61,418 bases of DNA from Oligoflexia bacterium (GTDB lineage: Bacteria > Bdellovibrionota > UBA1018 > CAIPTA01 > JAALKR01). The stretch covers positions 1-61,418 of the forward strand of contig JAALKR010000010.1 in NCBI GenBank assembly GCA_011087955.1, written 5' to 3'. Position numbers and translations under genes: made by a program. Positions 4,782-55,419 of the stretch are shown in pieces. Position 1 is the first letter of the stretch, and each line of letters begins with the position of its first letter. The notes under the pieces are model-generated. The model ran no database searches. It worked only from the letters and a program-made list of their open reading frames with translations, and was not told the origin of the DNA.

Positions 4782-5697
4782 ATATCACTAACGATATTAA
4801 CGTCAATCCCACTCCTAAGTGCGTCACACTCAGTGGCGGCGGTATCCTCATGGATGTGAGCGTTCCTCCGAGCAGGATCATACCAACCCCAAGTAACCAT
4901 TGAATAACCAACAATACCCCGATAAAGCAAGGGAATCTTGACCAGTATACTGGAAAGCTTTGCCCGCCCTTTGTCGAAGGTTTCGATGGAAGAACATCTT
5001 TCCAACGAAACATGAAAAAAAGCAATGCCAGTGTGGCAACGATGGCTCCTAGACGATGAATAAACTGAATTCCTACACGACCGTCGAAGCCTGGAAACCA
5101 GAGGCTATTACAAGTTGGAAAATCAGGGCAGGCCAGCCCGGCGTAATTCGCACTCACGCTTCCACCCAACATTATCTGCACAAACAAGACAACAATCGCA
5201 AGCCAGGTGACCCGTAAAAACCCTTTGGAAGCTTGTATCCTAGAACCGACACGATTACCAGACTCAAGATGATAAGCATGACGTGTTGCAATTAAGAGCA
5301 AGGCGAAAATTATGACAGCTGTTCCCAAGTGCATCGCGACGATTTCTGCTTTTAACAGCTCTGTTACCGTCAACCTACCGAGGTTAATCTGCACACCAAG
5401 CAATAAAAATGCAGCTGTAATCCAAGGAGCTAAGGGCTTGCGAAACGCTTTCTTTGTCCAAGACCATACAAGAGCTATTACTAAAATGAGCCCAACAACT
5501 GAGGCAGCCAGGCGATGGAAGTACTCGAGCATAATTCGATACTCCATTGGAGGAATCCATTGGCCGTGGCAAAAGGGCCAATCGGGACAAGACAGTCCCG
5601 CCGATTCAGTACGAACCCACGACCCGAGCAGGATCGTAAAGAAAGTAAATACGATTAACGACGTCATCAGGCGTGGCATAGATCGAGGCGCCCCCAA
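4738..5697 (-). CDS. ctaA: Heme A synthase (Cys-containing type)
   Basis: GLSCPDWPFCHG, EYFHR, GLACPDFPTC, QFIHR motifs. Confidence 0.95.
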   Translation of the reverse strand: MGAPRSMPRLMTSLIVFTFFTILLGSWVRTESAGLSCPDWPFCHGQWIPPMEYRIMLEYFHRLAASVVGLILVIALVWSWTKKAFRKPLAPWITAAFLLLGVQINLGRLTVTELLKAEIVAMHLGTAVIIFALLLIATRHAYHLESGNRVGSRIQASKGFLRVTWLAIVVLFVQIMLGGSVSANYAGLACPDFPTCNSLWFPGFDGRVGIQFIHRLGAIVATLALLFFMFRWKDVLPSKPSTKGGQSFPVYWSRFPCFIGVLLVIQWLLGVGMILLGGTLTSMRIPPPLSVTHLGVGLTLISLVICAYVEFRPDSKKLP

Positions 5698-5733
5698 AAA
5701 AAATTAATAGATCGATAAATGTGGTTTATTCGC

Positions 5734-6558
5734 TTATTTTTTTTTCTCTTTCAGCATTTGGTCGATGGCAAGATCGATTGGAATTCCCTTGGATTGAGAG
5801 CTTGCTCCTCCCTCCTCACCGATGCTATCCTTATCCTTAAGAATGCTTGCGTATTGAGCATCAACTTTTCCATTGCCCTGTGGATCTGGAATTATTGTTC
5901 GAATGAAGTGGGTCAATGCTAAACGATCTTTTGGCGAAAGCATTGCTTGGTAACCGGCCATGCCTGTTCCTTTAATCCCACTCGTTAGCGTTACATAGAT
6001 CGACTGAACGGAAGTACCGTTTGTCCACGCGGAAGAGTTGTCTTCAAAGTTTCTAGGCTTTGGGTTGAGCGCTCCACCAGCGATGCCGTCGCCCTTCCCT
6101 GCATTACCATGACAAGTGGCGCAGCCGCCTGCTCCGAGATAAAGCTCTTTACCTTTAGCCACGAGATCTGGAGAGGGGCGTTCCCACTCTTTAATTTCGG
6201 CCATAGAAGCTGCTGCTGCCGCAGACTTAACCTCTGCATATTTTGTGCCTGACTCCCATTCTTCTCGGTAGCCTAGGTCTGCGCCAACAAAGAAAAAGAA
6301 GACCGCTAAGAAAGCAATTGTTGCGACCATCGTGCCTCGGTTAAGCGCTGAGTCCCAACGCAGGCCCATAAAGAAAAATAGAACCAAGCTAGCTTTTGCT
6401 GAAGCAATTGCCATTGCTACTGCAAGGTTAGCTGCCATCGACCCAAAATTGAAGTAGGAGACCCCGACCGTTATAGCCGTCAATACAAGCAATCCACCTA
6501 GGGTGAAATAGTAATAGCTTAGTGGAACTATATGATGGTTATCGTGTTTATCTGACAT
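5734..6558 (-). CDS. Cytochrome c oxidase subunit IV (caa3-type) fused to a class I cytochrome c
   Basis: N-terminal three TMs with AIASAKASLVLFFFMGLRWD; C-terminal CATCH, LNPKPRNF and GMAGY (Met ligand). Confidence 0.9.
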   Translation of the reverse strand: MSDKHDNHHIVPLSYYYFTLGGLLVLTAITVGVSYFNFGSMAANLAVAMAIASAKASLVLFFFMGLRWDSALNRGTMVATIAFLAVFFFFVGADLGYREEWESGTKYAEVKSAAAAASMAEIKEWERPSPDLVAKGKELYLGAGGCATCHGNAGKGDGIAGGALNPKPRNFEDNSSAWTNGTSVQSIYVTLTSGIKGTGMAGYQAMLSPKDRLALTHFIRTIIPDPQGNGKVDAQYASILKDKDSIGEEGGASSQSKGIPIDLAIDQMLKEKKK

Positions 6559-37021: not shown

Positions 37022-39319
37022 ATGGCTGGACATATTATCGCAATAGTAGGTGGAAAGGGCGGCGTTGGAAAATCCGTTTTTTCTGCTAACCTTGCGCTTG
37101 CCTTTCTTAAAGAATTTGGCATGCGTTCCCTTCTGATTGACCAAGACATGTCCGCTTGCGGTGACCAGAATCTTATCTTTGGTATTAAGCAGGGAAGATT
37201 GTTAGTTGATGCTGTAAACCACGTAGGCCACTACGACACAAATGCAATGCAGAAGCTCGTTACTCAGCACGCAAACGGCTTGCATGTGATCTCTGCTCCG
37301 AAAACCTCTAGTGAGGCCTCTAAAATTTCTCCGGACGCCTTGGGAAAGTTCTATAAAGGTGTACGCAATCTCTATCCGATTGTTGTTGTAGATTGTGGTT
37401 CGCGCTTAGACACCTGTACTATAAAGGCAATGGAATTTGCCACGAGTATCTTTGTTGTGACTATTCCAGATATTCTCGTTATGCACCAGACGATGCGTAT
37501 GGTTCAAGATATTAACGAGAATATGTTCCCAAAAGAGATTATTCAAGTGGTGGTGAATCGTTTTTCTGGCAATGCAGCTGTAAATTCATCGACGATTCAA
37601 AGAAATTTAGGGTGCCCAATTTTGGGAGTAATCCCGGATGACCCGCAGGCAAATAATACGGCTCTTTCTCAAGGTAACCCAGTGTTAGTTTCTGTGCCGA
37701 ATGCTTCTTCGACTAGAGGTTATCACGAGTTGGTACGGAAAATTCAGCAGCAGAATCTATTGACAAAGTTAGCTCAGGTGAAAAAGCCAAGGAGGCTTGG
37801 AAAGAAAGCAGCCACTGAAGTTAATGCGGCAATTGCAGAAAAAAGTGTGCCTACAGAAAAATCTAGTCTCCGTGGAGGCTCTACCGATGTGATTGATACA
37901 CGCTCCGCCTTAAAACTTCGTGTACACAAAGAACTCGTTGAACGGGTTGACTTTAAGAAAGAAGGTTCTTCAGAGGCAGAAAAGGCTCGACTACGTGAGA
38001 AATGCAAATCAACCGTTGTTGACGTTTTAAATGGGGAAGATATCTCAGTCGTTGCTAAAGGTAGGGAAGAAATGCAGCGCTTGGTGAAGGAAATTCTTGA
38101 CGAGGCATTGGGGCTTGGTGCGCTCGAAGACCTACTTGCGGACAGAGCAGTGAACGAGATCATGGTGATTGCGCGAGATCGAATTTATTGTGAACGAGCT
38201 GGTAAAAATTTTCTCTCCAAAACCACCTTTTCATCTGATCAACAGCTGATGAACGTGATTGAGCGGATTGTGATGCCTTTAGGTCGAAGAATCGATGAGA
38301 AGTCTCCTCATGTGGATGCTCGTCTTCCCGATGGCTCTCGAGTGCATGCCATCATTCCTCCACTTGCGATCAAGGGGCCGACGCTTACCATTCGGAAATT
38401 TCCATCGGAACGCTTGACGTGGAAGCATTTAGTGGGGTTTGGGTCAATGACCACAGAGATTGCAGATTTTTTGCGAGTCTGTGTAGAGGCGCGACTCAAT
38501 ATTATCGTAGCCGGGGGTACTGGTTCTGGTAAGACAACCTTGTTGAACGTTTTATCTAACTTTATTCCGACAGGCGAACGGATTATCACCGTAGAGGATG
38601 CGGCAGAGCTGGATTTGGGACAGGATCACGTGGTCCGCCTTGAAACTCGTCCAGCCAATATTGAAGGCGAAGGAGAAGTTTCGATTCGTGAGTTAGTGAA
38701 GCAAACATTGCGAATGAAACCGGATCGAGTGATCGTAGGTGAGTGTCGTGCCGGTGAAGCGCTCGATATGTTACAGGCGATGAACACTGGTCACGATGGT
38801 TCCCTAACAACAGTCCATGCCAATACTCCGAGAGATACGATTGCCCGACTAGAAACTCTTGTAATGATGGCAGGGATGGGGTTGCCAGTTAAGGCAATTC
38901 GGGAGCAAATTTCTGGCGCAGTAAACTTGATTGTACAGCAGTCGCGACTTTCCGATGGTTCCCGTAAAATCACTCATATTACCGAAGTTGTTGGGATGCA
39001 GGGAGAGACAGTAGCTTTGCAGGATGTATTTATTCATGAGCAATCCGGATTAGATAAGCGGCGAAAGATTATTGGTAAGTTCGTACCTACTGGCTTTATT
39101 CCAAAATTTGTGGAGCAAATGGAAGCCAAAGGCTTGAAAATTCCACGTTCATTATTTTCTAATACTCCAGAGCAGAACAAGGAGGGGAAACCAAAACCAG
39201 GTGCTAAGCCAGTCGTCAAATCGGATGCAAGACGAGGAATTAAGCCAGGTGCTAAGCCCGACTCCAAGCCTCGTGCCGCTGGTAGCGGTACACCACCAGC
39301 GAAAGCAGGAGGCATGTAG
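37022..39319 (+). CDS. tadA: CpaE/TadZ (MinD-like)-CpaF/TadA ATPase fusion
   Basis: N-terminal GGKGGVGKS deviant Walker A; C-terminal GGTGSGKTT, VEDAAEL, RMKPDRVIVGECR, MNTGHDGS. Confidence 0.95.
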   Translation: MAGHIIAIVGGKGGVGKSVFSANLALAFLKEFGMRSLLIDQDMSACGDQNLIFGIKQGRLLVDAVNHVGHYDTNAMQKLVTQHANGLHVISAPKTSSEASKISPDALGKFYKGVRNLYPIVVVDCGSRLDTCTIKAMEFATSIFVVTIPDILVMHQTMRMVQDINENMFPKEIIQVVVNRFSGNAAVNSSTIQRNLGCPILGVIPDDPQANNTALSQGNPVLVSVPNASSTRGYHELVRKIQQQNLLTKLAQVKKPRRLGKKAATEVNAAIAEKSVPTEKSSLRGGSTDVIDTRSALKLRVHKELVERVDFKKEGSSEAEKARLREKCKSTVVDVLNGEDISVVAKGREEMQRLVKEILDEALGLGALEDLLADRAVNEIMVIARDRIYCERAGKNFLSKTTFSSDQQLMNVIERIVMPLGRRIDEKSPHVDARLPDGSRVHAIIPPLAIKGPTLTIRKFPSERLTWKHLVGFGSMTTEIADFLRVCVEARLNIIVAGGTGSGKTTLLNVLSNFIPTGERIITVEDAAELDLGQDHVVRLETRPANIEGEGEVSIRELVKQTLRMKPDRVIVGECRAGEALDMLQAMNTGHDGSLTTVHANTPRDTIARLETLVMMAGMGLPVKAIREQISGAVNLIVQQSRLSDGSRKITHITEVVGMQGETVALQDVFIHEQSGLDKRRKIIGKFVPTGFIPKFVEQMEAKGLKIPRSLFSNTPEQNKEGKPKPGAKPVVKSDARRGIKPGAKPDSKPRAAGSGTPPAKAGGM

Positions 39320-39322
39320 GTT

Positions 39323-40201
39323 ATGTTAAGCGATTTAATGGAGCCGATAACACTAGCTATAATCGTCGGGATTATTGTTTTTGTAGTTTCTTATATGCAC
39401 GCTCGTCGTTTTCTAGATTGGCTACGCTGGAAATCGATTGGCGCAAGAGATGACATTGTAGAGACATTGGAAAAAATGTTTATCGAGATCTCTCCCAATA
39501 AAGTTCTTCTCTATATGACTCTCTCAGCGATTGTTCCAGGCATTTTAGTGTTCTTACTAATTTTGCCACAATTCATTCCAGCACTTTGCTTTGGATTGGT
39601 GATTGCTATCTTTGGCTGGCATATTCCAAAGATAGTTGTCCGGAGAATGTTTGCGCAGCGAATGAATAGATTCAATCTACAAATGATTGATGGCTTGAGC
39701 TTGATGGCCAACGGTATGAAGTCCGGCCTATCCATTATTCAGGCTATGGGTCTTGTAAAGGAGGAGATGCCAGACCCATTGTCGAAAGAGTTTGATTATG
39801 TTTTACAACAGAACCGTCTTGGGGTGAGCGTGGAAGAGGCTTTCCAAAATCTTGCTAAGCGCATTCCTTCCGAAGATGTAAATATGTTTGTCACCTCTAT
39901 CATCATCCTCAAAGAAACAGGTGGAAATCTGGCCGAGACATTCGAGACAATTGTGCACGTTATTCGAGAGCGTTTAAAGGTGCAGCAGAAGATTGCTGCC
40001 ATGGTTGCCCAAGGTGTCGCTCAGGGGGTGATTGTATTCTGTATGCCTTTTGGCTTAGGTTTGATGTTCTACCTAAGTGACCCCAAGTTTATTGAGCCTC
40101 TTTTTTCGACTCCCCTGGGATGGCTGATATCAGCCGGTATTCTCACACTCCAATTTGTAGGCGGATTTGTGATTCTAAAAATTGTACAAATTAAAGTGTA
40201 G
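39323..40201 (+). CDS. tadB: Tad inner-membrane platform protein TadB (T2SSF family)
   Basis: MANGMKSGLS, PLSKEF, ETGGNLAE, IRER. Confidence 0.93.
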   Translation: MLSDLMEPITLAIIVGIIVFVVSYMHARRFLDWLRWKSIGARDDIVETLEKMFIEISPNKVLLYMTLSAIVPGILVFLLILPQFIPALCFGLVIAIFGWHIPKIVVRRMFAQRMNRFNLQMIDGLSLMANGMKSGLSIIQAMGLVKEEMPDPLSKEFDYVLQQNRLGVSVEEAFQNLAKRIPSEDVNMFVTSIIILKETGGNLAETFETIVHVIRERLKVQQKIAAMVAQGVAQGVIVFCMPFGLGLMFYLSDPKFIEPLFSTPLGWLISAGILTLQFVGGFVILKIVQIKV

Positions 40202-40237: not shown

Positions 40238-40264
40238 TAAGCACCCTATTTGGGATGCCGAAAA
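40238..40264 (+). promoter_or_regulatory. sigma28 (FliA)-like promoter upstream of the YD-repeat gene
   Basis: TAAG-N15-GCCGAAAA. Confidence 0.7.
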
Positions 40265-40282
40265 GCATATGTGAGGTTAGAA

Positions 40283-42091
40283 ATGACTGCTAATCGAGGA
40301 ATGAGCACCAATCAAAGACCAAGATTCATTGGAACACTAATTTTTGGAATAGCTCTGACGACCTTTCTGGTAGCGAATCTGGCGGACGCCCTAGTTGCAA
40401 TCACCAACGGAAATTATTTTACTGGCTTCGTAGATTTGAATCACCCGAATGCAGGACCGGGGTTTCAGTTAAAGCTAGAGCGTACTTATAACAGCCGCTC
40501 TCAATATAACGGCATTTTTGGATACGGTTGGGGTACTGAGTTTGAATCGTTTTTGGTGCCGGCTGCAGATGGTTCGGTGGTCATTCAGGAGTCTGGTGGC
40601 GGTGAGAAGACTCGTTTTACCCCTAAGGGTTTTTCAAATGGGGATATGAACAAGTTTATTACCGAGCTCATCAAAGCTAAGCAGAAAAAACAAGGTGGAG
40701 GATTCAATGCGCAAGCCTATACGGCTAAGTTGAAAAAGGACGCAGATTTCCGTGATGAGGAAGGTAGAACACTTGGCGTTATGCCAATGGTAAAAACTGG
40801 GACGAAGCTGTACTCCACTCAGCGTGGGGATAAGCAGGTAGTAACTGTGATCAAAGGTGGGTTTGTACGTGAATTTGGCACGGGCAAAATGGTTTATTTC
40901 ACGAAAAGAGCAAGCGTAAGAGATTTCGGTGTGGAAGTGTCTCGGCAGCGTGTGGTGAAGGGTGTATACAAGATCACTCGATTTGTGGACAAAGTACAAG
41001 GAGTCGACCTTAGTTTCAAATATGATGAAACAGGGAAGCTTGTGGCGATTACGGACGGAGGTAAGCAGACTTTGCGTTTTGTAACAAATACAGATGGCAA
41101 GGTCAAACAGGCTACGGATCACTTAGGCCGTGCTTCTACGTATAAGTATTGCCGTTCAAGGCGCTATAATAGTGCGCAAAAGTGCTCTGCTGGGGATTTG
41201 GTCTATTCTAAAGACGGTGCGGGTAATGAATTTATCTATGAGTATGACAATATTCATAACTTAACAAAAATCAAGTACTCAGATGGCTCTTTTGAGGAAA
41301 TCTCTTATTATCCAGCTAGCCCTCCAGGTGAGGGTGGTGCCAAAGAAGTGAAGCTTCGTCGTGGCGTGAAGATGAAGTACACCTATTGGTCAGATCCAAA
41401 AGATAAGCGTATGCATTTCAAAACAACGGTGGAGACGACCTATCGAAGTGGCCGGAAAACTATCGCTTCCTACGAATATTGGCGAAAGCGTCGCTCCGAT
41501 GGCACAGTCTATAAGCAAAAAATGGCGACCAATATTAATGGCGATAAAACAGTTACGACCTACAATGAATGCTGTGGGCAACCACTAGAAATCAAACGCT
41601 CCAGTGGTACGACTACTTTTGCGTACTACGATGATACTGGGTTGCCAAAATTAAAGAATTCGCCAACGGAAAAAGTAGGTTGGAAATACTCGAAACAGTT
41701 TCATGGTAAGGTTACTCAAGTGGCAGTGTTAGATAAGACTAAGGGTCAAAAGAAGGCACTGATTACAAAGTATCAATACAATGCAAAAGGCAATTTAGTG
41801 AGAGCCAAGACTTCTGACGGTAGAGGCGTTGGATTGCTTTATGATAGTAAAAACCGAATTAAGGCAATGATCGATCAAGAAAAGCGCAAAATCACCTTTA
41901 CATATAACAGCCTTTCGAAACCAGTAAAAATCACGCAGCAAGGAGTTGGAGGCATCACAGTAGAGTACGATGGCAAGGGTAGTATCAAAGAAGTAAACTC
42001 AAAAGGTGGACGTCAAATCGCTCTCAGCGTGACAGCAGCCTTTCAGAACCTCTTAGAGATTATCAAGCCTGCTGGAGTTCAGCCGTTATAA
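40283..42091 (+). CDS. Secreted YD/RHS-repeat protein (DUF6531-like N-terminus), Bd0109-like
   Basis: GAGG RBS, signal peptide, LERTYNSR...GIFGYGW, repeated YD/YN units; no RHS core motif. Confidence 0.88.
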   Translation: MTANRGMSTNQRPRFIGTLIFGIALTTFLVANLADALVAITNGNYFTGFVDLNHPNAGPGFQLKLERTYNSRSQYNGIFGYGWGTEFESFLVPAADGSVVIQESGGGEKTRFTPKGFSNGDMNKFITELIKAKQKKQGGGFNAQAYTAKLKKDADFRDEEGRTLGVMPMVKTGTKLYSTQRGDKQVVTVIKGGFVREFGTGKMVYFTKRASVRDFGVEVSRQRVVKGVYKITRFVDKVQGVDLSFKYDETGKLVAITDGGKQTLRFVTNTDGKVKQATDHLGRASTYKYCRSRRYNSAQKCSAGDLVYSKDGAGNEFIYEYDNIHNLTKIKYSDGSFEEISYYPASPPGEGGAKEVKLRRGVKMKYTYWSDPKDKRMHFKTTVETTYRSGRKTIASYEYWRKRRSDGTVYKQKMATNINGDKTVTTYNECCGQPLEIKRSSGTTTFAYYDDTGLPKLKNSPTEKVGWKYSKQFHGKVTQVAVLDKTKGQKKALITKYQYNAKGNLVRAKTSDGRGVGLLYDSKNRIKAMIDQEKRKITFTYNSLSKPVKITQQGVGGITVEYDGKGSIKEVNSKGGRQIALSVTAAFQNLLEIIKPAGVQPL

Positions 42092-42226
42092 GGGAAATGA
42101 GCGTTATAAGGAAAATATCCTGCTAAATGCACTTTTTAGCTGTACAAGAATTAGGCAGATACACCTAAACTTGTCAGTTCGATTTTTAAATTTCCGTCTA
42201 AGTTGTTGGTTCTATTAGTGTGTGAG

Positions 42227-42242
42227 TGGCATATGCTTTGCA
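42227..42242 (+). promoter_or_regulatory. sigma54 -24/-12 promoter
   Basis: TGGCAT-ATGCT-TTGCA, 32 nt upstream of ATG 42275. Confidence 0.75.
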
Positions 42243-42274
42243 GTATGAAGAGCAATAGAACTAGGAGAAAAGAT

Positions 42275-42523
42275 ATGCGTATTATTAAGATCGTGGCTTT
42301 ATTGATTTTTTTATCAGCAGTTCCTGCATTGGCAGTTGACAGTAGTGGACTAGGGCCTAAGGAAGACTTTGAAGCGTCTTGGGAAACTTGTTGCAATGCT
42401 GAAGTTGCTGCGAGTTCGGCTCAATGTAATTTTTGGGCAGACTCCAAAGCTGCAGAGCTTTTAGGAACACGCGCCCCTACAGAAGACGAGCGCGAGAAAG
42501 TATTGAACACTCGAGGCGAGTAA
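42275..42523 (+). CDS. Small secreted protein (82 aa, three Cys)
   Basis: AGGAGA RBS, Sec signal MRIIKIVALLIFLSAVPALA, own promoter and terminator. Confidence 0.8.
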   Translation: MRIIKIVALLIFLSAVPALAVDSSGLGPKEDFEASWETCCNAEVAASSAQCNFWADSKAAELLGTRAPTEDEREKVLNTRGE

Positions 42524-42574
42524 TTGCCTAATATTGCCGACTAAGTTTTAAACTAAATCCTAGTTCATGAGAAT

Positions 42575-42605
42575 AGGGAAGCCGACTATTACGGCTTCCC
42601 TTTTT
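42575..42605 (+). terminator. Rho-independent terminator
   Basis: AGGGAAGCCG-ACTATTA-CGGCTTCCCT followed by TTTT. Confidence 0.88.
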
Positions 42606-42787
42606 GCATATATGAGCTGCCTTTATTGAGATGGGATGAGATGAGAGTGCTTATAGTAGGCGCACGAGTGAACTATTGGACGGGACACTGTTGCTTCTTT
42701 GAGGAACTGTCTCTCTCTTAAGTCGCTGTTTAAAAAATAGTCAGTTGGGGTAGGGGGGGAAGTTTAACGTACACCGGAATTTTTATT

Positions 42788-42800
42788 TAAATCATTGATT
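42788..42800 (-). promoter_or_regulatory. IHF-binding consensus site
   Basis: Minus strand AATCAA-TGAT-TTA matches WATCAA-N4-TTR, 40 nt upstream of a sigma54 -24 box. Confidence 0.55.
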
Positions 42801-42840
42801 TCATAGGGCTATCTAAGGTTGCTCCCAAAAGGAAACACCT

Positions 42841-42856
42841 TGGCAAGATAGTTGCA
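42841..42856 (+). promoter_or_regulatory. sigma54 -24/-12 promoter
   Basis: TGGCAA-GATAG-TTGCA. Confidence 0.7.
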
Positions 42857-42946
42857 ACATAAGGGTAGTGAGCGATCAGTGCCTTGAAAAAGGTACTACA
42901 CGAGAGTGAGTTGTCACAGTTATTGTAGTTGAGAGAGGTAGTAGCG

Positions 42947-43219
42947 ATGAAGCGGTTGTTGTTAATAGTGCTAGCAGTAATGTCGTTGCAGTCGGAGATC
43001 GTGTTGGCCAAGGGTAAGTTACCCCTTGACCAAGCTATGATTGAAGAGGCACAACTGGCGGTTGGCATAGGTCAAAAGCGATTACTGTCAGAGTATACTG
43101 GCAAGAGCTTAGGGCCGAACAAGCGTACGGATGTTAAGTGTATTGATGAGGTTGCAAGCGCTCTAGGCGTTCGTAAGGCTGATATACATAGCGACATTAC
43201 GACTAAAGATGGGATTTAA
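42947..43219 (+). CDS. Small secreted protein (90 aa)
   Basis: GAGAGG RBS, signal peptide MKRLLLIVLAVMSLQSEIVLA. Confidence 0.75.
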   Translation: MKRLLLIVLAVMSLQSEIVLAKGKLPLDQAMIEEAQLAVGIGQKRLLSEYTGKSLGPNKRTDVKCIDEVASALGVRKADIHSDITTKDGI

Positions 43220-43497
43220 TTCTGTTCTTTCGGGGCTTTCGAAGGAGCAGGATTAATCCACATCGCCAATTTTCTGCGAGCCGTATTGAAAGCTTCTGGG
43301 ATTTTATGCCGTAGTTTGTCCGTTTGAGATTCAAACGTATTTTTCAATTGTTGTACAATGGCGCCCGTCCCTGTGCGCTCCACCACATGTTCCATATGAC
43401 CCTGTAGAGACTTACCCTCAAATCGCCAAGGACTCATTACTAGTGTTGCAGCGAAAATCATACCCAAAAAAAATAACATCCTAGCCAGTCTCAACAT
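43216..43497 (-). CDS. Small hypothetical membrane-anchored protein
   Basis: 93 aa with an N-terminal hydrophobic helix; overlaps the end of the upstream receiver gene. Confidence 0.65.
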   Translation of the reverse strand: MLRLARMLFFLGMIFAATLVMSPWRFEGKSLQGHMEHVVERTGTGAIVQQLKNTFESQTDKLRHKIPEAFNTARRKLAMWINPAPSKAPKEQN

Positions 43498-43861
43498 TGA
43501 ATTCCTCCAGGTATTTCTCCACTGTAAAATAAAACTCTGCGTCTGAAAATGGTGCAGTCAAAAGGTCACGGGCTCCAGATCGAATCACCTGCTCGCGAAT
43601 TACGTTTGTCGTGATATCAGTAAAAAGCACCACCTTGCGCTTGCTATCTACCGTCACTATACGCTTACAAGTCTCATAACCCGGTTCATCCATCAATTGG
43701 AGATCGATGATGGTGAGGTGAGGATCAAAGTACGTCAAATTTGGTAGAATTTTTTCACCTTCATGCATGACTTGATACTCAATGTTCATGTCGAGTAAAA
43801 GGTTGCAGAGTCGCTTTTCATAGTGTTTGCGCTTTGTAATGATAAGAGCCTTAAAGAGCAT
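43481..43861 (-). CDS. Stand-alone atypical receiver-domain protein
   Basis: IIDLQLMDEPGYETCKRI, VVLFT, GARDLLTAPF receiver pattern. Confidence 0.8.
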   Translation of the reverse strand: MLFKALIITKRKHYEKRLCNLLLDMNIEYQVMHEGEKILPNLTYFDPHLTIIDLQLMDEPGYETCKRIVTVDSKRKVVLFTDITTNVIREQVIRSGARDLLTAPFSDAEFYFTVEKYLEEFNVETG

Positions 43862-48863: not shown

Positions 48864-49841
48864 CTAGGCAGTTCCTGACTGGTTTGTTTTTTCGATAAAA
48901 AAATTTTCAAATTTAATCTGTTCAATATTTATCTGGTAGAGGCGAATTTTTTCAATCAGGGTAACCTTTGAAATTTGTATGGCGCGCGCCGTTTGGTTAA
49001 TTTTGCCATTGAAGCGCTTCAACATTGCCATAAGATAGGCTTTTTCAAACTGTGCTTTAGCGTCCTGAAATAGCAGTGGAAATTCAGAGATTTGATTTCT
49101 GCTACGGTGTAAGACGTCACCACTATATGCAGGAAGGTTTTCTACTTCGATCGTTTGACTCTCACAAAGGGTCACGGCAAATTCTAAACAGTTTTTGAGC
49201 TCCCGTAGATTCCCCGGCCACGTATGCTCCATTAATTTTCGCCGAGCTTGATCACTTAAAATATATTGCTGGCTATTTAATTTTCCGTGTTGCTTGAGAA
49301 AAAAGTCTATCCAATATTTCAGGCGTACGAAGTCATTTGCAATATCCGGGAGCGTGGTAGAAAAAATTTGAATTCGGAAGTAGAGGTCCTCGCGGAACTC
49401 ACCTTTGAGGACCATGTCTTTCAGATTTCGATTGGTGGCTGCGATAATTCGTACATCTAAATCAATCACACGATTGCTGCCAACGGGAGTCATTGTTTTG
49501 CTGTAGAGAATATCTAATAATTTTGTCTGCATTGGTAAACTTAGTTCACCAATCTCATCTAGAAAAATGGTGCCGCCTTGGGCCATTTCAAACTTACCAA
49601 TACGTTTTTGATGGGCACTGGAAAAGGCTCCTTTTTCATGACCGAATAACTCGCTCTCGAAGAGGTTTTCATTGAGCGTGCCTAGGTTGACGCTAATAAA
49701 TGGCTTTTGCTTTCTTTGGCTGGCTTCATGAATCTTTCGAGCCAAATGAGTTTTACCTGTTCCAGTGGACCCTAGAATTAAAATAGTCCCTGTACCTGGC
49801 GCGACTTTTCGAAGTAATAATTCCTTGTTTAGTTCCTGCAT
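48864..49841 (-). CDS. sigma54-dependent activator (AAA+ + HTH) lacking an N-terminal regulatory domain
   Basis: GSTGTGKT, ESELFGHEKGAFSSA, FLDEIGEL, AATNRNL, FREDLYFR, WPGNLREL, C-terminal Fis-type HTH. Confidence 0.92.
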   Translation of the reverse strand: MQELNKELLLRKVAPGTGTILILGSTGTGKTHLARKIHEASQRKQKPFISVNLGTLNENLFESELFGHEKGAFSSAHQKRIGKFEMAQGGTIFLDEIGELSLPMQTKLLDILYSKTMTPVGSNRVIDLDVRIIAATNRNLKDMVLKGEFREDLYFRIQIFSTTLPDIANDFVRLKYWIDFFLKQHGKLNSQQYILSDQARRKLMEHTWPGNLRELKNCLEFAVTLCESQTIEVENLPAYSGDVLHRSRNQISEFPLLFQDAKAQFEKAYLMAMLKRFNGKINQTARAIQISKVTLIEKIRLYQINIEQIKFENFFIEKTNQSGTA

Positions 49842-49884
49842 AATATCCTCCCCCTATACGATCCAGTATATAGCAATATTTTAA

Positions 49885-49901
49885 TGTGCTTATAAAGCAC
49901 A
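49885..49901. promoter_or_regulatory. Perfect 7-3-7 palindrome, candidate operator
   Basis: TGTGCTT-ATA-AAGCACA upstream of the activator gene. Confidence 0.5.
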
Positions 49902-49965
49902 AAAAACATTGATTTTTGTATTAAAAACCATACAAGATTTAATCTCCTGCAAATTTCCATGATTA

Positions 49966-50976
49966 TTAGTCATACAGTTTTTTGATCTGCATTTGCAACC
50001 AAGGAGCAAGATCTTCCCTGGAATCAGCAATTGTCACTCCGGCCATTTCGGTCAATCCGATTGCCGTAAGGGCAGTACGAGGATTTAGATCTGCTCCTTG
50101 TATATAAATCCATGTACGTTTTGAGTTTTGTGCACCAGTCTTTATAAAATGCTGAAAAAATATATCAATACGGGGAGGTAACGGCATTGCCACTACACCG
50201 AAATCAATTGCTAGAATAGAGTGTTTCATTTGCTCAGCGGAGCGAATAATGTCTTCTAAGCTGGCAATTATGTCTACCTCACAATAACGGCTTTCAATCT
50301 TGCCTTTGACCATTTTTGCGAAGTTACTACTGGGACTATATAATGCTACATGCTCTGGAATTAGATCAACATAGGTTATGCGTTGGCCGACGACATTCTC
50401 AAAAATTGGCTGTGGAATCAGTATTGTAAGCTTTTCTTTTGTATATGGCTCTAGTGTCAAAGTAGATAGCCACACAATATATTCTTTCTTTGAGATGAAG
50501 AACTCTTCAGAAATTTTATCATCAGGAAATAAATTTTTTTCGAAGTTCATGACCAGATGGAGGTTAGTGCTGGATAGATGGCGAATAGAACGATCGAGTG
50601 CGCCAGTGAATTGATTGCTAATCTCATCGAACGCATCTGCAGTAATATTTAGAAACTCTTGGGATTCAATTTTCGATTTAATTACTGATTCAGACTGTTG
50701 CCGAAGATAACTACCAAGAACAATTGCTGAATTAAATTCAAAAAACATATAGATTTTATCATTGGGCTTGTTCTCAATGTCAATATTGACGATAACGGAC
50801 TTTTTTTTATAAACCCTTAAGTAAGTGGCGATGGGCATTGAGAAGGCTTCAAATGGCGCCAATTTTATGGAATTTCCCATCAATATAAGCTGCAGGATGT
50901 TCTCTAGCTCAGTAGCTAACCTTTGCGAAAGCTCTTGGTTTTGTTTCGTAGGAGTTATTCGAATCGGTGGGAGCAT
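49966..50976 (-). CDS. CheC/CheX-like phosphatase-fold protein with a degenerate C-terminal receiver-like domain
   Basis: DAFDEISNQFTG (D-x3-E-x2-N) motif; translationally coupled to cheY. Confidence 0.65.
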   Translation of the reverse strand: MLPPIRITPTKQNQELSQRLATELENILQLILMGNSIKLAPFEAFSMPIATYLRVYKKKSVIVNIDIENKPNDKIYMFFEFNSAIVLGSYLRQQSESVIKSKIESQEFLNITADAFDEISNQFTGALDRSIRHLSSTNLHLVMNFEKNLFPDDKISEEFFISKKEYIVWLSTLTLEPYTKEKLTILIPQPIFENVVGQRITYVDLIPEHVALYSPSSNFAKMVKGKIESRYCEVDIIASLEDIIRSAEQMKHSILAIDFGVVAMPLPPRIDIFFQHFIKTGAQNSKRTWIYIQGADLNPRTALTAIGLTEMAGVTIADSREDLAPWLQMQIKKLYD

Positions 50977-51341
50977 TACTTACCAAAAAACTGATTTAAA
51001 ACATCTTTTAGTTGCTTTGCAGAGAATGGCTTAGTGAGAACTTTATGTGCTCCGGCGTCAATCATTTTTTGCTGCATCTTAGGGGAGCTTTCCGTCGTAA
51101 TCATAACGACAGGAAGGCTTTTAAACTTTTCTCTAATCACCTTTACTAACTCAATGCCATCAATCTCAGGCATGTTTACGTCCGATAGAACTAAATCAAT
51201 GTCTCCTTTGGCTATTGCTGCCAAGGCCTCTTTGGCGCTAGCAGCCTCTACCAGGTCAAGTTTCGTGTACCCAGCCTGTCGTAACAATTTGGCCATCATC
51301 ATGCGCATGGTTTCCGAGTCGTCTACTACAATGATTTTCAT
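50976..51341 (-). CDS. cheY: CheY-like response regulator
   Basis: VVDDS, SDVNMP, MITTE, TKPF. Confidence 0.92.
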   Translation of the reverse strand: MKIIVVDDSETMRMMMAKLLRQAGYTKLDLVEAASAKEALAAIAKGDIDLVLSDVNMPEIDGIELVKVIREKFKSLPVVMITTESSPKMQQKMIDAGAHKVLTKPFSAKQLKDVLNQFFGK

Positions 51342-51386
51342 ACTTCCACCGAAAATTAAATTACATTGCCTTTACATATTCTACAA

Positions 51387-51414
51387 TAAACTTTTACGCT
51401 CCTCTATCCGATAG
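51387..51414 (+). promoter_or_regulatory. sigma28-like promoter upstream of the MCP gene
   Basis: TAAA-N16-TCCGATAG. Confidence 0.55.
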
Positions 51415-51431
51415 ATTAGACAGAGCATATT

Positions 51432-53279
51432 ATGTGGACCAAGTTTCTTAAGGACAGCTATGGAGTCTATTTCTGGGAACGTATCGGATTCCGGATAGCG
51501 ATTGGGTTTTTAGTACCTATAGGCTTTAATGTGTACACCTTAATATCCGTTGCCGGGTTTTCTGGCCTGCATACTGGAATCTTTTCTGAGTCCATGGAGA
51601 AGAAAGAATGGGTTACTCAAAAGTGGACAAACGTCCATGCCCACGAACTAGAATATCATGTGAAGATCTTCGAATCGAAATACGAAGTGGCGCGTTATTT
51701 AGGCTCGGATAACGATGCTTCTGTACGCCACAAGGCAATGCGCTTATTGAAAGAGGTCGAGCAAGGTATTCGTAACGCTCAAGCACTCTCGGGAGATAGT
51801 CAAAGACCAGAGTCAATGAAAATTTATATGGCGATTTTTACGCAAATTGAAGATTATAGCGGATATTTGTATCAGCTTGGGGAGCGTAGAAAGAGCGACA
51901 AAAAGATTTCACGAAAAGAGCGAGAAAGTATTCGTCGTAGAATGCTTCTCCTAAGTGATGGGCTAGAACAGGCGGTTCAACGGCTTACAGTACGATTTGA
52001 AGCGCTTGAGCTTCAGGATCAGGACAGTATCAAAGCTAGCTTCTCTCAGATATTAAATGGCTTGCAGCTAATGCTTCTCGTTACAATTTTTCTAGGATTA
52101 ACAGCAGTTCTCCTTGTTACGTGGAATGTTACAAGGCCAATGAAGCTTGTGGTTGATCATTTCCGCGATATTGTTACGGGTGAGGGAGGTCTTACAAAAC
52201 GAGTATCGGTCCGTGCAGTCGGCGAAATGGCGGAAATTTCTCGCTCAATGAACGATTTCCTGGATAAAACTTATGCAATTGTTTCGACCATTCGTGATGC
52301 TTCACAAATTATTGCTAGCAGTGTTAGTGAAGTAAAAGAGAATACAGACTCCACAGCTCTTTCTGCAATAGAGATCAATCGCAATATGATGACACAGTCG
52401 ATGAATCTTGAGGATTGCTCGGTGTCAGTCTCTCGGATTGATGAACTATTGCATTCCTCAGATGAGAGTTCGCGTCAAGCCGCATCTTTGTCTAGATTGG
52501 CAATGGAGCGTGCTTTGAGGGGAGGCGGCTCCGTTCAAGAAACCGTTCAAGCGATGGGAAAAATTGAGGAGTCTGCTACTAAGGTTGACGTTCTTGTGTC
52601 GACGATTAATGGACTTGCGACACAAACAAACTTGCTTGCGATTAATGCGGCTATTGAGGCTTCGAAGGCGGGTGAGCATGGCAAGGGCTTTGCAGTTGTT
52701 GCGGAAGAGGTTAGAAAGCTAGCAGCACGGACTGGAAAACTAACTGGTGAAGTAAATGACTTAATTTCAGAAACTAGCGAGCGAGTAAAAGTCGGATCAG
52801 AGTTAGCTCGAGGCGCGGGCGTGGCTCTGGATGGTGTCATAAAGGATGTTGAAGCGGTGGCTTCCTTAATTCAGCGAATTGCTAATGCCTCTACGAAGCA
52901 GGCAGAATCTTCATCCAGATTTTTAGATGCGATTCAGAAAATAAACTCTGCAGTTCGGGATAATTTAGGTTCTATGCAGTTCGTGACCCGAGGTGCGGAA
53001 GTTGTCGATCAAGAAATTCAGAATCTTGAAGGAATGGTTAGCCGGCTAAACAATTTAGTAAATCAATTTCACCTACAGGACTACAGCTATGCCGAATATG
53101 GTAAAGATAGTAAGCCAGGATTGGCTCGCATCCCTGTAACAGAACCCGATAGCATGTTTATCGATGAAGCTAATGGCAGCAACGACGGCGATGATAACTT
53201 CTTTTCTGTAGAAGAACTCAAAGCACAGAAAAATTCAGTCGACTCAGATGAATTCGATGGAAAAGGAAATGCTGCATGA
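51432..53279 (+). CDS. Methyl-accepting chemotaxis protein
   Basis: Two TMs, HAMP domain, QTNLLAINAAIEASKAGEHGKGFAVVAEEVRKLA. Confidence 0.96.
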   Translation: MWTKFLKDSYGVYFWERIGFRIAIGFLVPIGFNVYTLISVAGFSGLHTGIFSESMEKKEWVTQKWTNVHAHELEYHVKIFESKYEVARYLGSDNDASVRHKAMRLLKEVEQGIRNAQALSGDSQRPESMKIYMAIFTQIEDYSGYLYQLGERRKSDKKISRKERESIRRRMLLLSDGLEQAVQRLTVRFEALELQDQDSIKASFSQILNGLQLMLLVTIFLGLTAVLLVTWNVTRPMKLVVDHFRDIVTGEGGLTKRVSVRAVGEMAEISRSMNDFLDKTYAIVSTIRDASQIIASSVSEVKENTDSTALSAIEINRNMMTQSMNLEDCSVSVSRIDELLHSSDESSRQAASLSRLAMERALRGGGSVQETVQAMGKIEESATKVDVLVSTINGLATQTNLLAINAAIEASKAGEHGKGFAVVAEEVRKLAARTGKLTGEVNDLISETSERVKVGSELARGAGVALDGVIKDVEAVASLIQRIANASTKQAESSSRFLDAIQKINSAVRDNLGSMQFVTRGAEVVDQEIQNLEGMVSRLNNLVNQFHLQDYSYAEYGKDSKPGLARIPVTEPDSMFIDEANGSNDGDDNFFSVEELKAQKNSVDSDEFDGKGNAA

Positions 53280-53764
53280 GGATCTACCGTCGAGAGCTAT
53301 TTATTTTTGATATAGGAGGTGTACCGCTGGCGTTGCGAATGGAAGACGTTGAGTATATTTTGCCAGCTAGTGAAATTACATCAGTTCCAAAGACTGCTCA
53401 ATTTGTTCTAGGATTGGCTGCTGTTCGCGGAAAAATTATGAGTGTGATCGATGGAGGACTACGTTTGAGGATTCAGCGTCAAGGTACAAGCTATTTTGTG
53501 GTTTGCCATGTTCGAGGTAATACGACGGCTGTACTAATCAACCGGCCCCTTGAAGCAAAGAATCTTTCGGTAAAAAAAATAGAGTCAAGTGATGTAGAGC
53601 GCATTCTTGCTCGACATAAGCTAAATCCGAAAATGTTTTCTGCTGCTTGGGAAATACTTAAAAAAAAGGACAGCCACTGGAGTGAGACTGGGCGAAAATT
53701 TCTGGAAATCAATACGGATCAGTTTGTAAGCGATCAAATGGCATCGAAGATCATAGTTGGTTAG
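53276..53764 (+). CDS. cheW: CheW coupling protein
   Basis: ITSVPKTAQFVLGLAAVRGKIMSVID. Confidence 0.88.
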   Translation: MRIYRRELFIFDIGGVPLALRMEDVEYILPASEITSVPKTAQFVLGLAAVRGKIMSVIDGGLRLRIQRQGTSYFVVCHVRGNTTAVLINRPLEAKNLSVKKIESSDVERILARHKLNPKMFSAAWEILKKKDSHWSETGRKFLEINTDQFVSDQMASKIIVG

Positions 53765-53772
53765 GATGAACA

Positions 53773-55419
53773 ATGACTATTGTTGATCCAATAATTTTTA
53801 ATGCCTTTCTAAACGAATCCAAAGAGGCAGTAGAGTCCTTGGAAGCAGATTTAGTTAAACTTGAAAGCGATTTAGAAAATAAAAATTTGATTAACTCTGT
53901 CTTTCGTAGCCTTCATACAATTAAAGGAAACGCTAGCTTTTTAGATTTGGACAATATTACAACCGTTGCTCATGAAGCCGAGACTCTATTGGATGAGGTG
54001 CGCTCAGGAAAACGGAAGATAAATCAAACGAGCATTGATTTAGTTTATTCAGTAGTTGATGTACTTCAGGAAATGCTTGAAGATCCAGAGATGGCGCAAG
54101 CAATTAAATCTGTCAATGTGCTTAAGGTTGAAGAGTCTAAGATTGAGCACATAGTTTCATTAGTACATGAGTTAGAATTACTGCGTTACTCGATGGAGAA
54201 ATTGCCAGCGCAGTTAGAAGGTGAAAGAGGAGATATAAGCGAAGGGCTTTTTAATCTAGAGCTTGCTACGTCGAAAGCTTCTAGGATTACAAGTGAACTA
54301 GGAGCAATCGTCTTTGGCGCACGTCTAGTTCCTGTGAATAACGTCTTTCGCCGCTTTCCAAGAATTGTGCGAGAATTAGCCAAGAAGCTGGACAAAAAAA
54401 TTGAATTAAAAGTGTTGAATGGATCTGCAAAACTCGATAAGTCGATTGTGGAGGCCATTGCTGATCCGATGACTCATTTGATTCGAAACGCTGTAGACCA
54501 TGGCGTGGAATCCCCAGAAAATCGCCAGGCTAAGGGCAAGAAGCAACAAGGCACTATTACACTCAATTCATTTGTAGATGGAAACCTAGTAGTTATTGAA
54601 ATCAAGGACGATGGTAAAGGAATGGATCCGGATCTAATTTTATATCAGGCTGCAGAGAAGGGGATTATTTTTCGAGGCAAAGAGAATACAATGTCAGATA
54701 GCGAGAAATTAGGTCTTATTTTCGCTCCTGGGTTTTCAACAGCAGAACAGGTCACAGATATTTCAGGCCGTGGCGTCGGAATGGATGTAGTAAAATCAAA
54801 TATCAATAAATTAAAGGGCATGGTGCAGATTGAATCAACACTTGGCATTGGCACGACAATTCAATTGCGTTTCCCTTTTTCAGTGGTTGTAGCCAGCTGT
54901 TTATATGTTTATATCGATGAAGTGTGCTATGCGATTCCGTTGTCTCAGATGGAAGAATCGATTCATATCGCTAAGGGGGAACTGTTCACCCAATCGCCAC
55001 AGCGATTGAAGTCAGGTGAGGAGGCAATGGCTGTTTACTCGTTACAAGAACTATTGACTGGAAAATTTCAAATCAAGCAAGGGATTAAGGAACTACCAGC
55101 AGTAAGAGTACGTCGAAAAGATGGTAGGTTGATTGCTCTAATTGTTGATGAGTTCTCAATTATGGAAGAAGCAGTCATTCATTCCGTGGATTCCTATATT
55201 TCTTCCATTCCAGGTATTCAAGGTGGAGTAATTCGAAGAGACGGCTTGGTCTCTATCGCACTATCAATAGATTCTCTATTGGAAACAACATTCAAGAAAA
55301 TTCCGTTGGCCTATGCTGTAAATAAAGAGCGAAAGCACCCCGAAATTACGGACCTGCAAAAACTTATTGAAGATGCAAGAGAGATCACTGATGGAGTTTT
55401 AGATTTTAAACTTTCTTAA
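53773..55419 (+). CDS. cheA: Compact CheA histidine kinase (no P2 domain)
   Basis: FRSLHTIKG, HLIRNAVDHGVE, DDGKG, FAPGFSTA, SGRGVGMDVV, C-terminal CheW-like domain. Confidence 0.95.
   Translation: MTIVDPIIFNAFLNESKEAVESLEADLVKLESDLENKNLINSVFRSLHTIKGNASFLDLDNITTVAHEAETLLDEVRSGKRKINQTSIDLVYSVVDVLQEMLEDPEMAQAIKSVNVLKVEESKIEHIVSLVHELELLRYSMEKLPAQLEGERGDISEGLFNLELATSKASRITSELGAIVFGARLVPVNNVFRRFPRIVRELAKKLDKKIELKVLNGSAKLDKSIVEAIADPMTHLIRNAVDHGVESPENRQAKGKKQQGTITLNSFVDGNLVVIEIKDDGKGMDPDLILYQAAEKGIIFRGKENTMSDSEKLGLIFAPGFSTAEQVTDISGRGVGMDVVKSNINKLKGMVQIESTLGIGTTIQLRFPFSVVVASCLYVYIDEVCYAIPLSQMEESIHIAKGELFTQSPQRLKSGEEAMAVYSLQELLTGKFQIKQGIKELPAVRVRRKDGRLIALIVDEFSIMEEAVIHSVDSYISSIPGIQGGVIRRDGLVSIALSIDSLLETTFKKIPLAYAVNKERKHPEITDLQKLIEDAREITDGVLDFKLS

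Follow-up and report, generated by a model that had tools for sequence, protein, structure and literature searches.

The 61,418 nucleotides (nt) of Oligoflexia DNA analysed here (hereafter the window; positions 1–61,418 of contig JAALKR010000010.1, genome G000) come from an uncultured, sponge-associated bacterium of a predatory type known solely from metagenome DNA, and raise the question of what two very small genes are doing directly behind a Tad (type IVb pilus) operon. The interval in question, 42092–43219, lies between the stop codon of a 613-amino-acid (aa) open reading frame (ORF) for a YD/RHS-repeat protein and a convergent gene pair, and inspection of the sequence and its ORFs found it filled by two small plus-strand ORFs, termed ORF1 and ORF2. 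The locus is probably this lineage's version of the Bdellovibrio hit locus, with small exported partners of the YD protein that are gated by sigma-54, a reading adopted here with some reserve. The features on which it turns, in window coordinates, are the following, with IHF standing for integration host factor and UAS for upstream activator site.

40250–42091, plus strand: YD/RHS-repeat protein with DUF6531, 613-aa ORF (Pfam RHS_repeat 5.9e-16, DUF6531 1.5e-10)
42140–42177, no strand assigned: putative UAS of promoter 1, CTGTACAAGAATTAGGCAG at 42140–42158 and a further, degenerate copy; distance to the −24 box 87 nt
42227–42242, plus strand: sigma-54 promoter 1, TGGCATATGCTTTGCA, −24 GG at 42228–29 and −12 GC at 42240–41, start expected near 42253
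42275–42523, plus strand: ORF1, 82 aa, predicted signal peptide and ~62-aa mature part with CC-x10-C-x2-WA (ORF call, codon usage, two homologues)
42575–42601, plus strand: intrinsic terminator of ORF1, 10-bp stem, 7 G-C pairs, T run
42726–42744, no strand assigned: putative UAS of promoter 2, CTGTTTAAAAAATAGTCAG, 115 nt upstream of the −24 box
42788–42800, minus strand: IHF consensus AATCAATGATTTA, 53 nt from the second −24 box
42841–42856, plus strand: sigma-54 promoter 2, TGGCAAGATAGTTGCA, exact core, start expected near 42867
42947–43219, plus strand: ORF2, 90 aa, predicted signal peptide and ~69-aa mature part with one Cys (ORF call, codon usage, conserved ribosome-binding block)

The original prediction, made from the letters of the window, had placed −24/−12 boxes at 42227 and 42841, and both are exact, matching TGGCAC-N5-TTGCW at all nine core bases plus the W, with the −24 GG and the −12 GC ten bases apart. 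The pattern TGGCA-N6-TTGCW occurs four times in the window where 0.39 matches are expected, a number not attained in any of 100 shuffles. The whole genome has 19 matches, several ahead of genes for lipoprotein-like or secreted proteins and one ahead of flgB, and 12 of the 19 fall outside every ORF of at least 100 aa; the box at 42227 falls within no ORF except the TTG-extended frame of ORF1 itself. For both intergenic stretches, a scan for sigma-70-like sites by consensus came up empty. The genome also encodes RpoN (PF04552 at 2.2e-63), ten strong matches to enhancer-binding proteins (PF00158, E-value 3e-36 or better) and two proteins of the HU/IHF family. Putative upstream activator sites are present as the palindromes 87 and 115 nt from the respective cores, and promoter 2 has an IHF site between activator site and core, the perfect consensus that had been claimed upstream of the second gene, at −53; promoter 1 has no IHF consensus.

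Both ORFs are protein-coding by codon usage. A codon-usage model built from 812 long ORFs of this genome gives each of them a log-odds of 0.215 per codon in frame, compared with 0.199 ± 0.062 for chunks of real genes and −0.62 ± 0.24 for off-frame chunks, and the other five frames of each ORF score from −1.13 to 0.007. The ribosome-binding site (RBS) anticipated for each gene is present as AGGAG at 42263–42267, 7 nt ahead of the ATG of ORF1 at 42275, and as GAGG at 42935–42938, 8 nt ahead of the ATG of ORF2 at 42947. The Sec signals likewise reappear as signal-peptide-like N-termini, MRIIKIVALLIFLSAVPALA/VD in ORF1 (MRIIK, then IVALLIFLSAVP, then ALA/V) and MKRLLLIVLAVMSLQSEIVLA/KG in ORF2 (MKR, then LLLIVLAVMSL..VLA/K), each with one or more basic residues, an uncharged hydrophobic stretch and an A-x-A-like end; they were assigned by eye and with a crude script rather than a dedicated predictor, and the script also passes some spurious frames. 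Export of both products by Sec is likely. The mature parts, foreseen as Cys-containing peptides of ~60–70 aa, would be ~62 aa long with three Cys in ORF1 and ~69 aa long with one in ORF2, and the strong terminator described after the first gene is found at 42575–42601. No Rfam family matched the window stretch above threshold. Contigs from four sponge-metagenome DNA runs, which cover the locus in part, carry no changes within ORF1 or ORF2 and no indels; no RNA run was listed among the sequencing runs that contain the sequence.

Conservation in relatives supports these assignments. Alignment of the YD protein led to 61 named Bdellovibrionota loci, 50 of which were analysed and 11 excluded as cut at or inside the YD match; 49 of the 50 have at least 400 nt beyond the YD stop, 69 kb of downstream sequence in total, and since the relatives are kin the counts across loci are not independent events. 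Perfect TGGCA-N6-TTGC cores in these 69 kb number 42 on the strand of the YD gene and none on the opposite strand, with at least one in 28 of the 49 loci, whereas a control of 210 kb (the YD gene and its upstream sequence) holds a single core and shuffles hold 0.18 on average and two at most. Within 250 nt of the YD stop, a signal-peptide-like ORF of 50–130 aa begins on the same strand in 42 of the 49 loci, whereas a control stretch taken from within the YD gene yields such a start in 2 of 49. Counted over the first 1000 nt past the stop, such ORFs number 70 on the strand of the YD gene and 25 on the opposite one, the latter including real convergent genes, and a Cys lies beyond the hydrophobic core in 68 of 70 ORFs at two conserved places.

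The eight nearest relatives, with YD proteins ~52% identical to that of the window, show its exact plan. Their first core stands at +112 to +133 after the YD stop (8/8) and is followed by an ORF of 63–71 aa; a second core at +614 to +841 (7/7) is followed by an ORF of 64–76 aa, the eighth locus having 661 nt of downstream sequence. In G001, the sole genome belonging to the same family, the second small ORF is preceded by TGGCAAGATACTTGCA, a single base off the box in the window. Among more distant loci, 20 have a first small ORF that lies directly against the YD stop and lacks a core of its own, and 23 have a sigma-54 core ahead of a later small ORF.

When the upstream regions of both small genes are aligned across the nearest relatives, two palindromes of the type CTGTCTAAAGTTTAGACAG (TGT-N11-ACA; CTGT-N11-ACAG) appear at promoter 1 in the same place as in the window, and promoter 2 shows one conserved palindrome of the CTGTAAAAAAAATAGACAG type. 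The block TAAGTTATTGATAT, whose other strand reads as the IHF consensus, is found at promoter 2 in most of the nine sequences aligned for this element, and gene 2 has a conserved RBS block, G(A/T)GAGGTAGAnGATG. The flanks between these elements do not align, and conservation amid diverged spacers is the best evidence, as far as sequence comparison goes, that both promoters work. For the small proteins themselves, location, promoter and export signal persist even as the sequences diverge beyond recognition. The claim of two separate sigma-54 cassettes for small exported Cys proteins beside the YD gene is much strengthened by conservation in relatives. Separately, the −12 element of the nearest relatives reads TTGCT at the first promoter and TTGCA at the second; that of the Bdellovibrionaceae is mostly T(C/A/G)GC(A/T), TGGCAY being invariant there.

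The link to Bdellovibrio is made by the YD protein, which aligns end to end over 580 aa with the protein encoded beside 'hit' in the genome of the model strain, G369 (31% identity, E 2e-85). It is present in all 31 genomes searched, G000 among them, as a conserved single-copy neighbour of the Tad genes, and on sequence grounds is the orthologue of Bd0109, at the end of the Tad operon. Genes for a TadB/C protein and CpaF lie directly upstream, and the two small signal-peptide ORFs follow on the same strand, ORF1 at +183 and ORF2 at +855 from the YD stop. The accessible sections of the published work describe Bd0108 as a small secreted protein encoded straight after the YD protein Bd0109 in the Tad cluster bd0109–bd0119, with bd0108 co-transcribed with bd0109 (YD/RHS) and the Tad genes bd0110–0111 and, from the published deletion primers, an ATG ~15 nt past the bd0109 stop (PMC3818213). 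Over-expression of bd0108 results in more piliation, Bd0109 and Bd0108 interact, and a 261-nt 'non-coding' RNA at 96455–96716, between bd0103 and bd0108, is up in bd0108 mutants (PMC3818213). Bd0108 is reported to be intrinsically disordered, with a CXXC motif and with residues 24–66 contacting Bd0109, and its authors speculate that the RHS shell encloses it, so that encapsulation in a cocoon is already a published hypothesis for this pair (PMC4267844). In B. marinus SJ, two small proteins with putative signal peptides, neither of them homologous to Bd0108, are encoded next to the Bd0109 homologue (PMC4267844).

The corresponding features of G369 are as follows.

97194–98846, minus strand: Bd0109-type ORF (ORF call)
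96873–97178, minus strand: 101-aa 'hit' ORF (CAE77782.1), next after the Bd0109-type ORF
C1:96483–96683 (locus L087, 3483–3683), minus strand: 66-aa signal-peptide ORF, entirely within 96455–96716

The published primer 103-108sRNAF matches G369 at 96555, within the interval published for the small RNA (sRNA). Past 'hit' there is a terminator with a 12-bp stem and then a sigma-54-like box, TGGCACACGCGATGCA, which has eight of the nine core bases with GG and GC in register and stands 59 nt ahead of the 66-aa ORF; this ORF has AAGGAG 7 nt ahead of its ATG and begins MKKIVQATIAMSLIASVAMA, with a Cys soon after. In the databases its product goes by 'hypothetical protein' or 'lipoprotein' only, and the accessions postdate the first HD100 annotation. 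In a set of 30 Bdellovibrionaceae loci from 30 genomes, all 30 have a signal-peptide-like ORF starting no more than 250 nt past the YD stop, and in 28 the ORF abuts that stop, though the script passes spurious frames and ~27 of these first ORFs are Bd0108-like (at least 80 aa) by eye. A second signal-peptide ORF, of 56–117 aa, begins 32–59 nt past a TGGCAY-N..-GC(A/T) box in 22 of the 30 loci; these second ORFs align on a Cys near the presumed site of cleavage, and a TNP motif recurs in many of them. At the threshold used, ~26 sigma-54-like boxes lie on the strand of the gene and 7 on the other. We conclude from these sequence comparisons that the second unit would be a protein gene in the Bdellovibrionaceae too, the published sRNA coinciding with its mRNA, for which a dual role is conceivable.

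With these elements the locus can be read as follows. Each small gene would be a transcription unit of its own, read by RNA polymerase with sigma-54, the TGT-N11-ACA-type palindrome upstream of each core would recruit an enhancer-binding protein, and IHF would bend the DNA at the second promoter. That an enhancer-binding protein turns on both small genes is very probable. Given a sigma-54/enhancer design, both genes should therefore be silent until the ATPase of the activator is switched on. The small genes would respond to a different input from the pilus operon, the first promoter of which is published as FliA-dependent for Bdellovibrio, where FliA drives the TAD operon at the flp1 promoter at its head (PMC5430801, accessible sections). 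After export, both proteins would most likely act as weakly binding periplasmic partners of the YD protein and would tune pilus activity and its signal, as has been published for Bd0108 with Bd0109. It is reasonably likely that ORF1 and ORF2 are functional counterparts of the hit-locus small proteins; that they bind the YD protein, and thereby alter pilus activity or a signal derived from it, is suggested by analogy and is a tentative proposal. The original prediction, in which the YD shell has a periplasmic ligand that controls the pilus, is, by the same analogy, plausible, and is essentially the published Bd0108/Bd0109 model. A complex prediction for the YD protein with mature ORF1 scored 0.00, which is no answer and counts neither way.

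It had also been claimed that the YD gene has a sigma-28-like promoter of its own. The motif is present in the window, but as a single imperfect match that none of the nearest relatives shares:

40238–40264, plus strand: sigma-28-like motif TAAG-N15-GCCGAAAA (weak), sole such match in the window, imperfect at 3/4 and 7/8

Ahead of the YD gene of the nearest relatives it occurs in 0 of 7, and the case for a sigma-28 promoter of this gene is weak. Translation of the YD protein probably starts at ATG 40284.

An alternative to the hit-locus reading is that ORF1 and ORF2 are ordinary members of a wider sigma-54 regulon for the cell exterior, adjoining the Tad and YD genes without working with them. 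The CTGT-N11-ACAG palindrome has 16 copies in the genome, and palindromes of its type lie 57–139 nt upstream of at least six other sigma-54 cores, several of them ahead of genes for lipoprotein-like or secreted proteins:

C12:37175, C21:9770, C6:37918, C27:81983, C44:63376 and C39:78252: other sigma-54 cores preceded by the palindrome

Two of these palindromes are perfect (C12:37076 and C21:9867, ~100–115 nt upstream of the cores at C12:37175 and C21:9770), and the cores with imperfect copies number four. The pattern points to a single activator whose regulon consists of envelope proteins; other exported-protein genes share the enhancer type, and the regulon of the activator would therefore be wider than the pilus locus. 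The promoter-1 module has moreover been duplicated ahead of an unrelated gene. A diverged copy of 42130–42302 lies on contig C15 of the same genome (98641–98799, minus strand; locus L118, ~5640–5800) and was found as separate contigs in three sponge-metagenome runs. Retained in the C15 copy are the palindrome, the leader and the core TGGCACATGACTTGCC; the start of ORF1 is there too but decayed, with ATA in place of its ATG, the signal peptide mostly deleted and a stop after 'GSGLGPKDDIED'. This copy is a relocated promoter module, and precedes an orphan lipoprotein-like ORF, seemingly split over two frames, that adjoins deoC, deoB and deoA. Such spread, together with the failure to find homology to Bd0108, is what an unconnected envelope regulon would lead one to expect. 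It would not, however, account for a place after the YD gene and on its strand that is kept in 42 of 49 loci of one class while the sequences turn over, nor for the same adjacency in 30 of 30 loci of another family, the Bdellovibrionaceae. Persistent adjacency usually means joint function, and the first small protein of B. bacteriovorus is reported to bind the YD protein (PMC4267844, accessible sections). Independent membership of the regulon is accordingly thought unlikely, albeit with a weight that should not be neglected.

Two further explanations concern the nature of the gene products. The sigma-54 transcripts could be regulatory RNAs, as was proposed for the 261-nt RNA of HD100, with the frames incidental or forming one half of a dual-function transcript; the published RNA lies downstream of bd0108, is up in bd0108 mutants and matches ORF2 in place (PMC3818213, accessible sections). 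This is improbable in view of the gene-like codon usage in one frame only, the RBS and the signal-peptide-like start of both ORFs, the protein-level homologues of ORF1, and the empty Rfam search of the window stretch. The RNA interval of G369 itself holds the 66-aa ORF with its AAGGAG after a terminator, and in 22 of 30 Bdellovibrionaceae loci a signal-peptide ORF with an aligned Cys is kept behind a sigma-54-like box. Small immunity genes, on the other hand, typically come after RHS toxin genes (PMC3818213, accessible sections), and ORF1 and ORF2 might be immunity proteins of an RHS polymorphic toxin. The YD protein, however, stops right after its repeats, its C-terminus is conserved across relatives in the alignment, Pfam finds no toxin domain in it, and in every one of the 31 genomes searched it is the conserved single-copy Tad neighbour. 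ORF1 and ORF2 carry predicted export signals, unlike immunity proteins, which are cytoplasmic. The pairing of a variable C-terminal toxin with a cytoplasmic immunity protein was not found at this locus, and an immunity role is very improbable indeed.

Returning to the reading as a hit locus, several points weigh against it in addition to the wider regulon and the duplicated module. The related loci are kin, and the counts drawn from them are not independent of one another. The signal peptides are predicted by heuristic means only. Single-sequence structure models of the mature parts have low confidence, with a predicted local distance difference test (pLDDT) score of 65.2 and three helices for ORF1 and of 60.0 and two helices for ORF2; the helical models would be compatible with the published, partly helical and largely disordered Bd0108, without demonstrating the likeness. 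The equivalence of ORF1 and ORF2 to the hit-locus small proteins is positional only: it consists in position, strand, export signal, Cys content and promoter, and not in demonstrable homology to Bd0108 or to the second ORF.

This last point rests on extensive searches. No sequence homology of ORF1 or ORF2 was found to Bd0108 or to the small ORFs of relatives. Each small ORF is found in 0 of 60 relatives' genomes, and retrieves only itself in a word-indexed search of 5.77 billion proteins. Profiles built from the first ORFs of the eight nearest relatives and from seven second ORFs place ORF2 at rank 115 (E 200) and ORF1 at rank 1104, both within the noise, and those built from 27 and 22 Bdellovibrionaceae ORFs place ORF1 at rank 550 (E 490, with the profile for the Bd0108 position) and do not list ORF2. 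The homologue search that the original prediction had proposed succeeded for ORF1, for which an exhaustive phmmer search of the mature part against 1.84 billion representatives found two small homologues of the same plan, P0018 (84 aa, E 8.9e-5) and P0019 (83 aa, E 3.4e-4), and yielded none for ORF2, which has no detectable relative in the genomes of relatives, in the 5.77 billion proteins or in the protein atlas (best score 0.77). Invariant among ORF1, P0018 and P0019 are L26, G27, S35, E37, C39, C40, A49, C51, W54, A55, L63 and G64; P0018 and P0019 are each known from one contig, of 7986 and 818 nt. The three-member profile finds no further member in the 5.77 billion proteins, and in 127 genomes of the class it has only two weak matches, both away from the YD locus. 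It ranks the first small ORFs of relatives 6th, 7th, 14th and 17th of ~18,000 (E 2.7 to 14), which is only a hint of kinship. Two candidate members were rejected: P0017, a 2982-aa repeat protein with an 18-fold match to mature ORF1, was judged a low-complexity artefact, and metagenome locus L122 was a GC-rich, out-of-frame chance match. The statement that the small proteins resemble nothing known did not hold in one respect, as by position and context they are counterparts of those at the Bdellovibrio hit locus, ORF1 of Bd0108 and ORF2 of the second small ORF.

A candidate for the activator is encoded further along the same contig.

48864–49841, minus strand: candidate activator, a 325-aa enhancer-binding protein with AAA+ and helix-turn-helix domains and no N-terminal sensor domain (Pfam Sigma54_activat 1.8e-61, HTH_8)

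Its minus-strand operon comprises a 121-aa receiver (50976–51341), a 336-aa unknown protein and the 325-aa enhancer-binding protein, and faces a plus-strand set of genes for a methyl-accepting chemotaxis protein (MCP), CheW and CheA, the whole spanning 48864–55419. In 7 of 10 relatives of the order a gene for the 325-aa activator lies 6–12 kb past the YD gene on the same contig, the YD gene of the remaining three being on contigs of 8 kb or less; no such gene for an enhancer-binding protein was found within 16 kb of the locus in G369. The proposal of the 325-aa protein as the cognate activator is a guess. As observations apart from this, the layout at 48864–55419 resembles chemosensory control of a sigma-54 activator, and the MCP gene has a sigma-54 core within it, at 52679. 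One Bdellovibrio paper lists bd0843 as RpoN-like.

NifA-dependent nifH promoters combine sigma-54 with IHF and with activator sites of the form TGT-N10-ACA. The promoters of the window resemble this classical type in the −24 GG/−12 GC core, the palindrome ~90–120 nt upstream and, at promoter 2, the IHF site in between, but differ from it in a palindrome spacing of N11 and in serving tiny exported proteins instead of metabolic operons. The YD protein with a small partner encoded alongside recalls the RHS/YD cocoons of Tc toxins and teneurins, although the partner in the window would be a separate exported protein and not the C-terminal domain of the shell, and there is no toxin domain.

Closest to the window is the hit locus of HD100, where Tad genes are likewise followed by a secreted YD/RHS protein (31% identity) and then, on the same strand, by a small Cys-containing signal-peptide protein, with a further small unit beyond a terminator. 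The two loci differ in that Bd0108 abuts bd0109 at ~15 nt and is co-transcribed with it, whilst ORF1 stands 183 nt away with a sigma-54 promoter of its own, and in that neither ORF1 nor ORF2 has detectable sequence similarity to Bd0108. The place of ORF2, after the first small gene and a terminator and on the strand of the locus, is that of the 261-nt sRNA (PMC3818213, accessible sections), but that RNA was published as non-coding, whereas the unit in the window and those at 22 of 30 Bdellovibrionaceae loci read as a protein gene. The two-gene layout of B. marinus SJ, a Bd0109 homologue (BMS_0182) with two small signal-peptide neighbours (BMS_0183 and BMS_0184), is that of the window and its nearest relatives, the likeness being drawn from the published description (PMC4267844, accessible sections).

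The control of the lifestyle of Bdellovibrio-like predators by the hit locus has been open since the 1990s, the published players being Bd0108, Bd0109 and an unexplained small RNA, and the layout of a YD protein with one or more small secreted neighbours is already published. What is added here is a conserved sigma-54/enhancer/IHF design ahead of the small secreted proteins, which calls for an activator and a signal; another conserved protein of the small secreted kind; and a reading of the HD100 sRNA as coding. In the literature searched, which covered few subscription journals, neither sigma-54/enhancer/IHF control of the hit-locus small genes, nor its conservation across two classes, nor a coding reading of the hit-locus sRNA was found, and the accessible sections of a 2024 mBio paper and a 2026 review make no mention of sigma-54 control or of a coding sRNA. 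The general form of the proposal is that across the Bdellovibrionota a sigma-54 activator times the small YD partners, that these partners are two, and that the HD100 sRNA is the mRNA of the second, a 66-aa secreted protein; in this full extent it is put forward as a possibility that falls somewhat short of an even chance. If it is true, the switch between predatory and prey-independent growth includes a sigma-54-gated pair of secreted proteins rather than Bd0108 plus an RNA. All three additions can be tested in the cultured model strain by standard genetics. Small genes of this kind, divergent in sequence but conserved in position, are missed by homology-based annotation.

Upstream of the YD gene, the Tad operon runs in the order prepilin peptidase, TadE-like protein, RcpC/CpaB, secretin, CpaE-CpaF fusion and one TadB/C. 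The genes flanking the YD gene and the interval are the following.

37022–39319, plus strand: CpaE/TadZ-like ParA domain fused to a CpaF/TadA ATPase, 765 aa (Pfam T2SSE 1.7e-61, CbiA/ParA 7e-18)
39323–40201, plus strand: TadB/C-type platform protein, T2SSF (Pfam T2SSF 3.3e-21)
43216–43861, minus strand: convergent pair of a 93-aa hydrophobic protein (43216–43497) and a single-domain receiver (43481–43861; Pfam Response_reg 3.4e-10)

A single T2SSF (TadB/C) gene follows the CpaE-CpaF fusion, the usual number being two. In G369 a 739-aa ORF, with the same P-loop motif at its N-terminus, stands at the position corresponding to this fusion. Synteny with G369 downstream of the small genes, where a receiver and a small hydrophobic protein are also found, was considered and rejected, as the layout alone is alike: the receivers share 22% identity (E 2e-4) and the small proteins show no similarity. 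Near the start of the window, a sigma-54 core, TGGCACTTTAATTGCT, lies at 282–297, 35 nt ahead of a 971-aa lipoprotein-like ORF (MENLF...LSAC).

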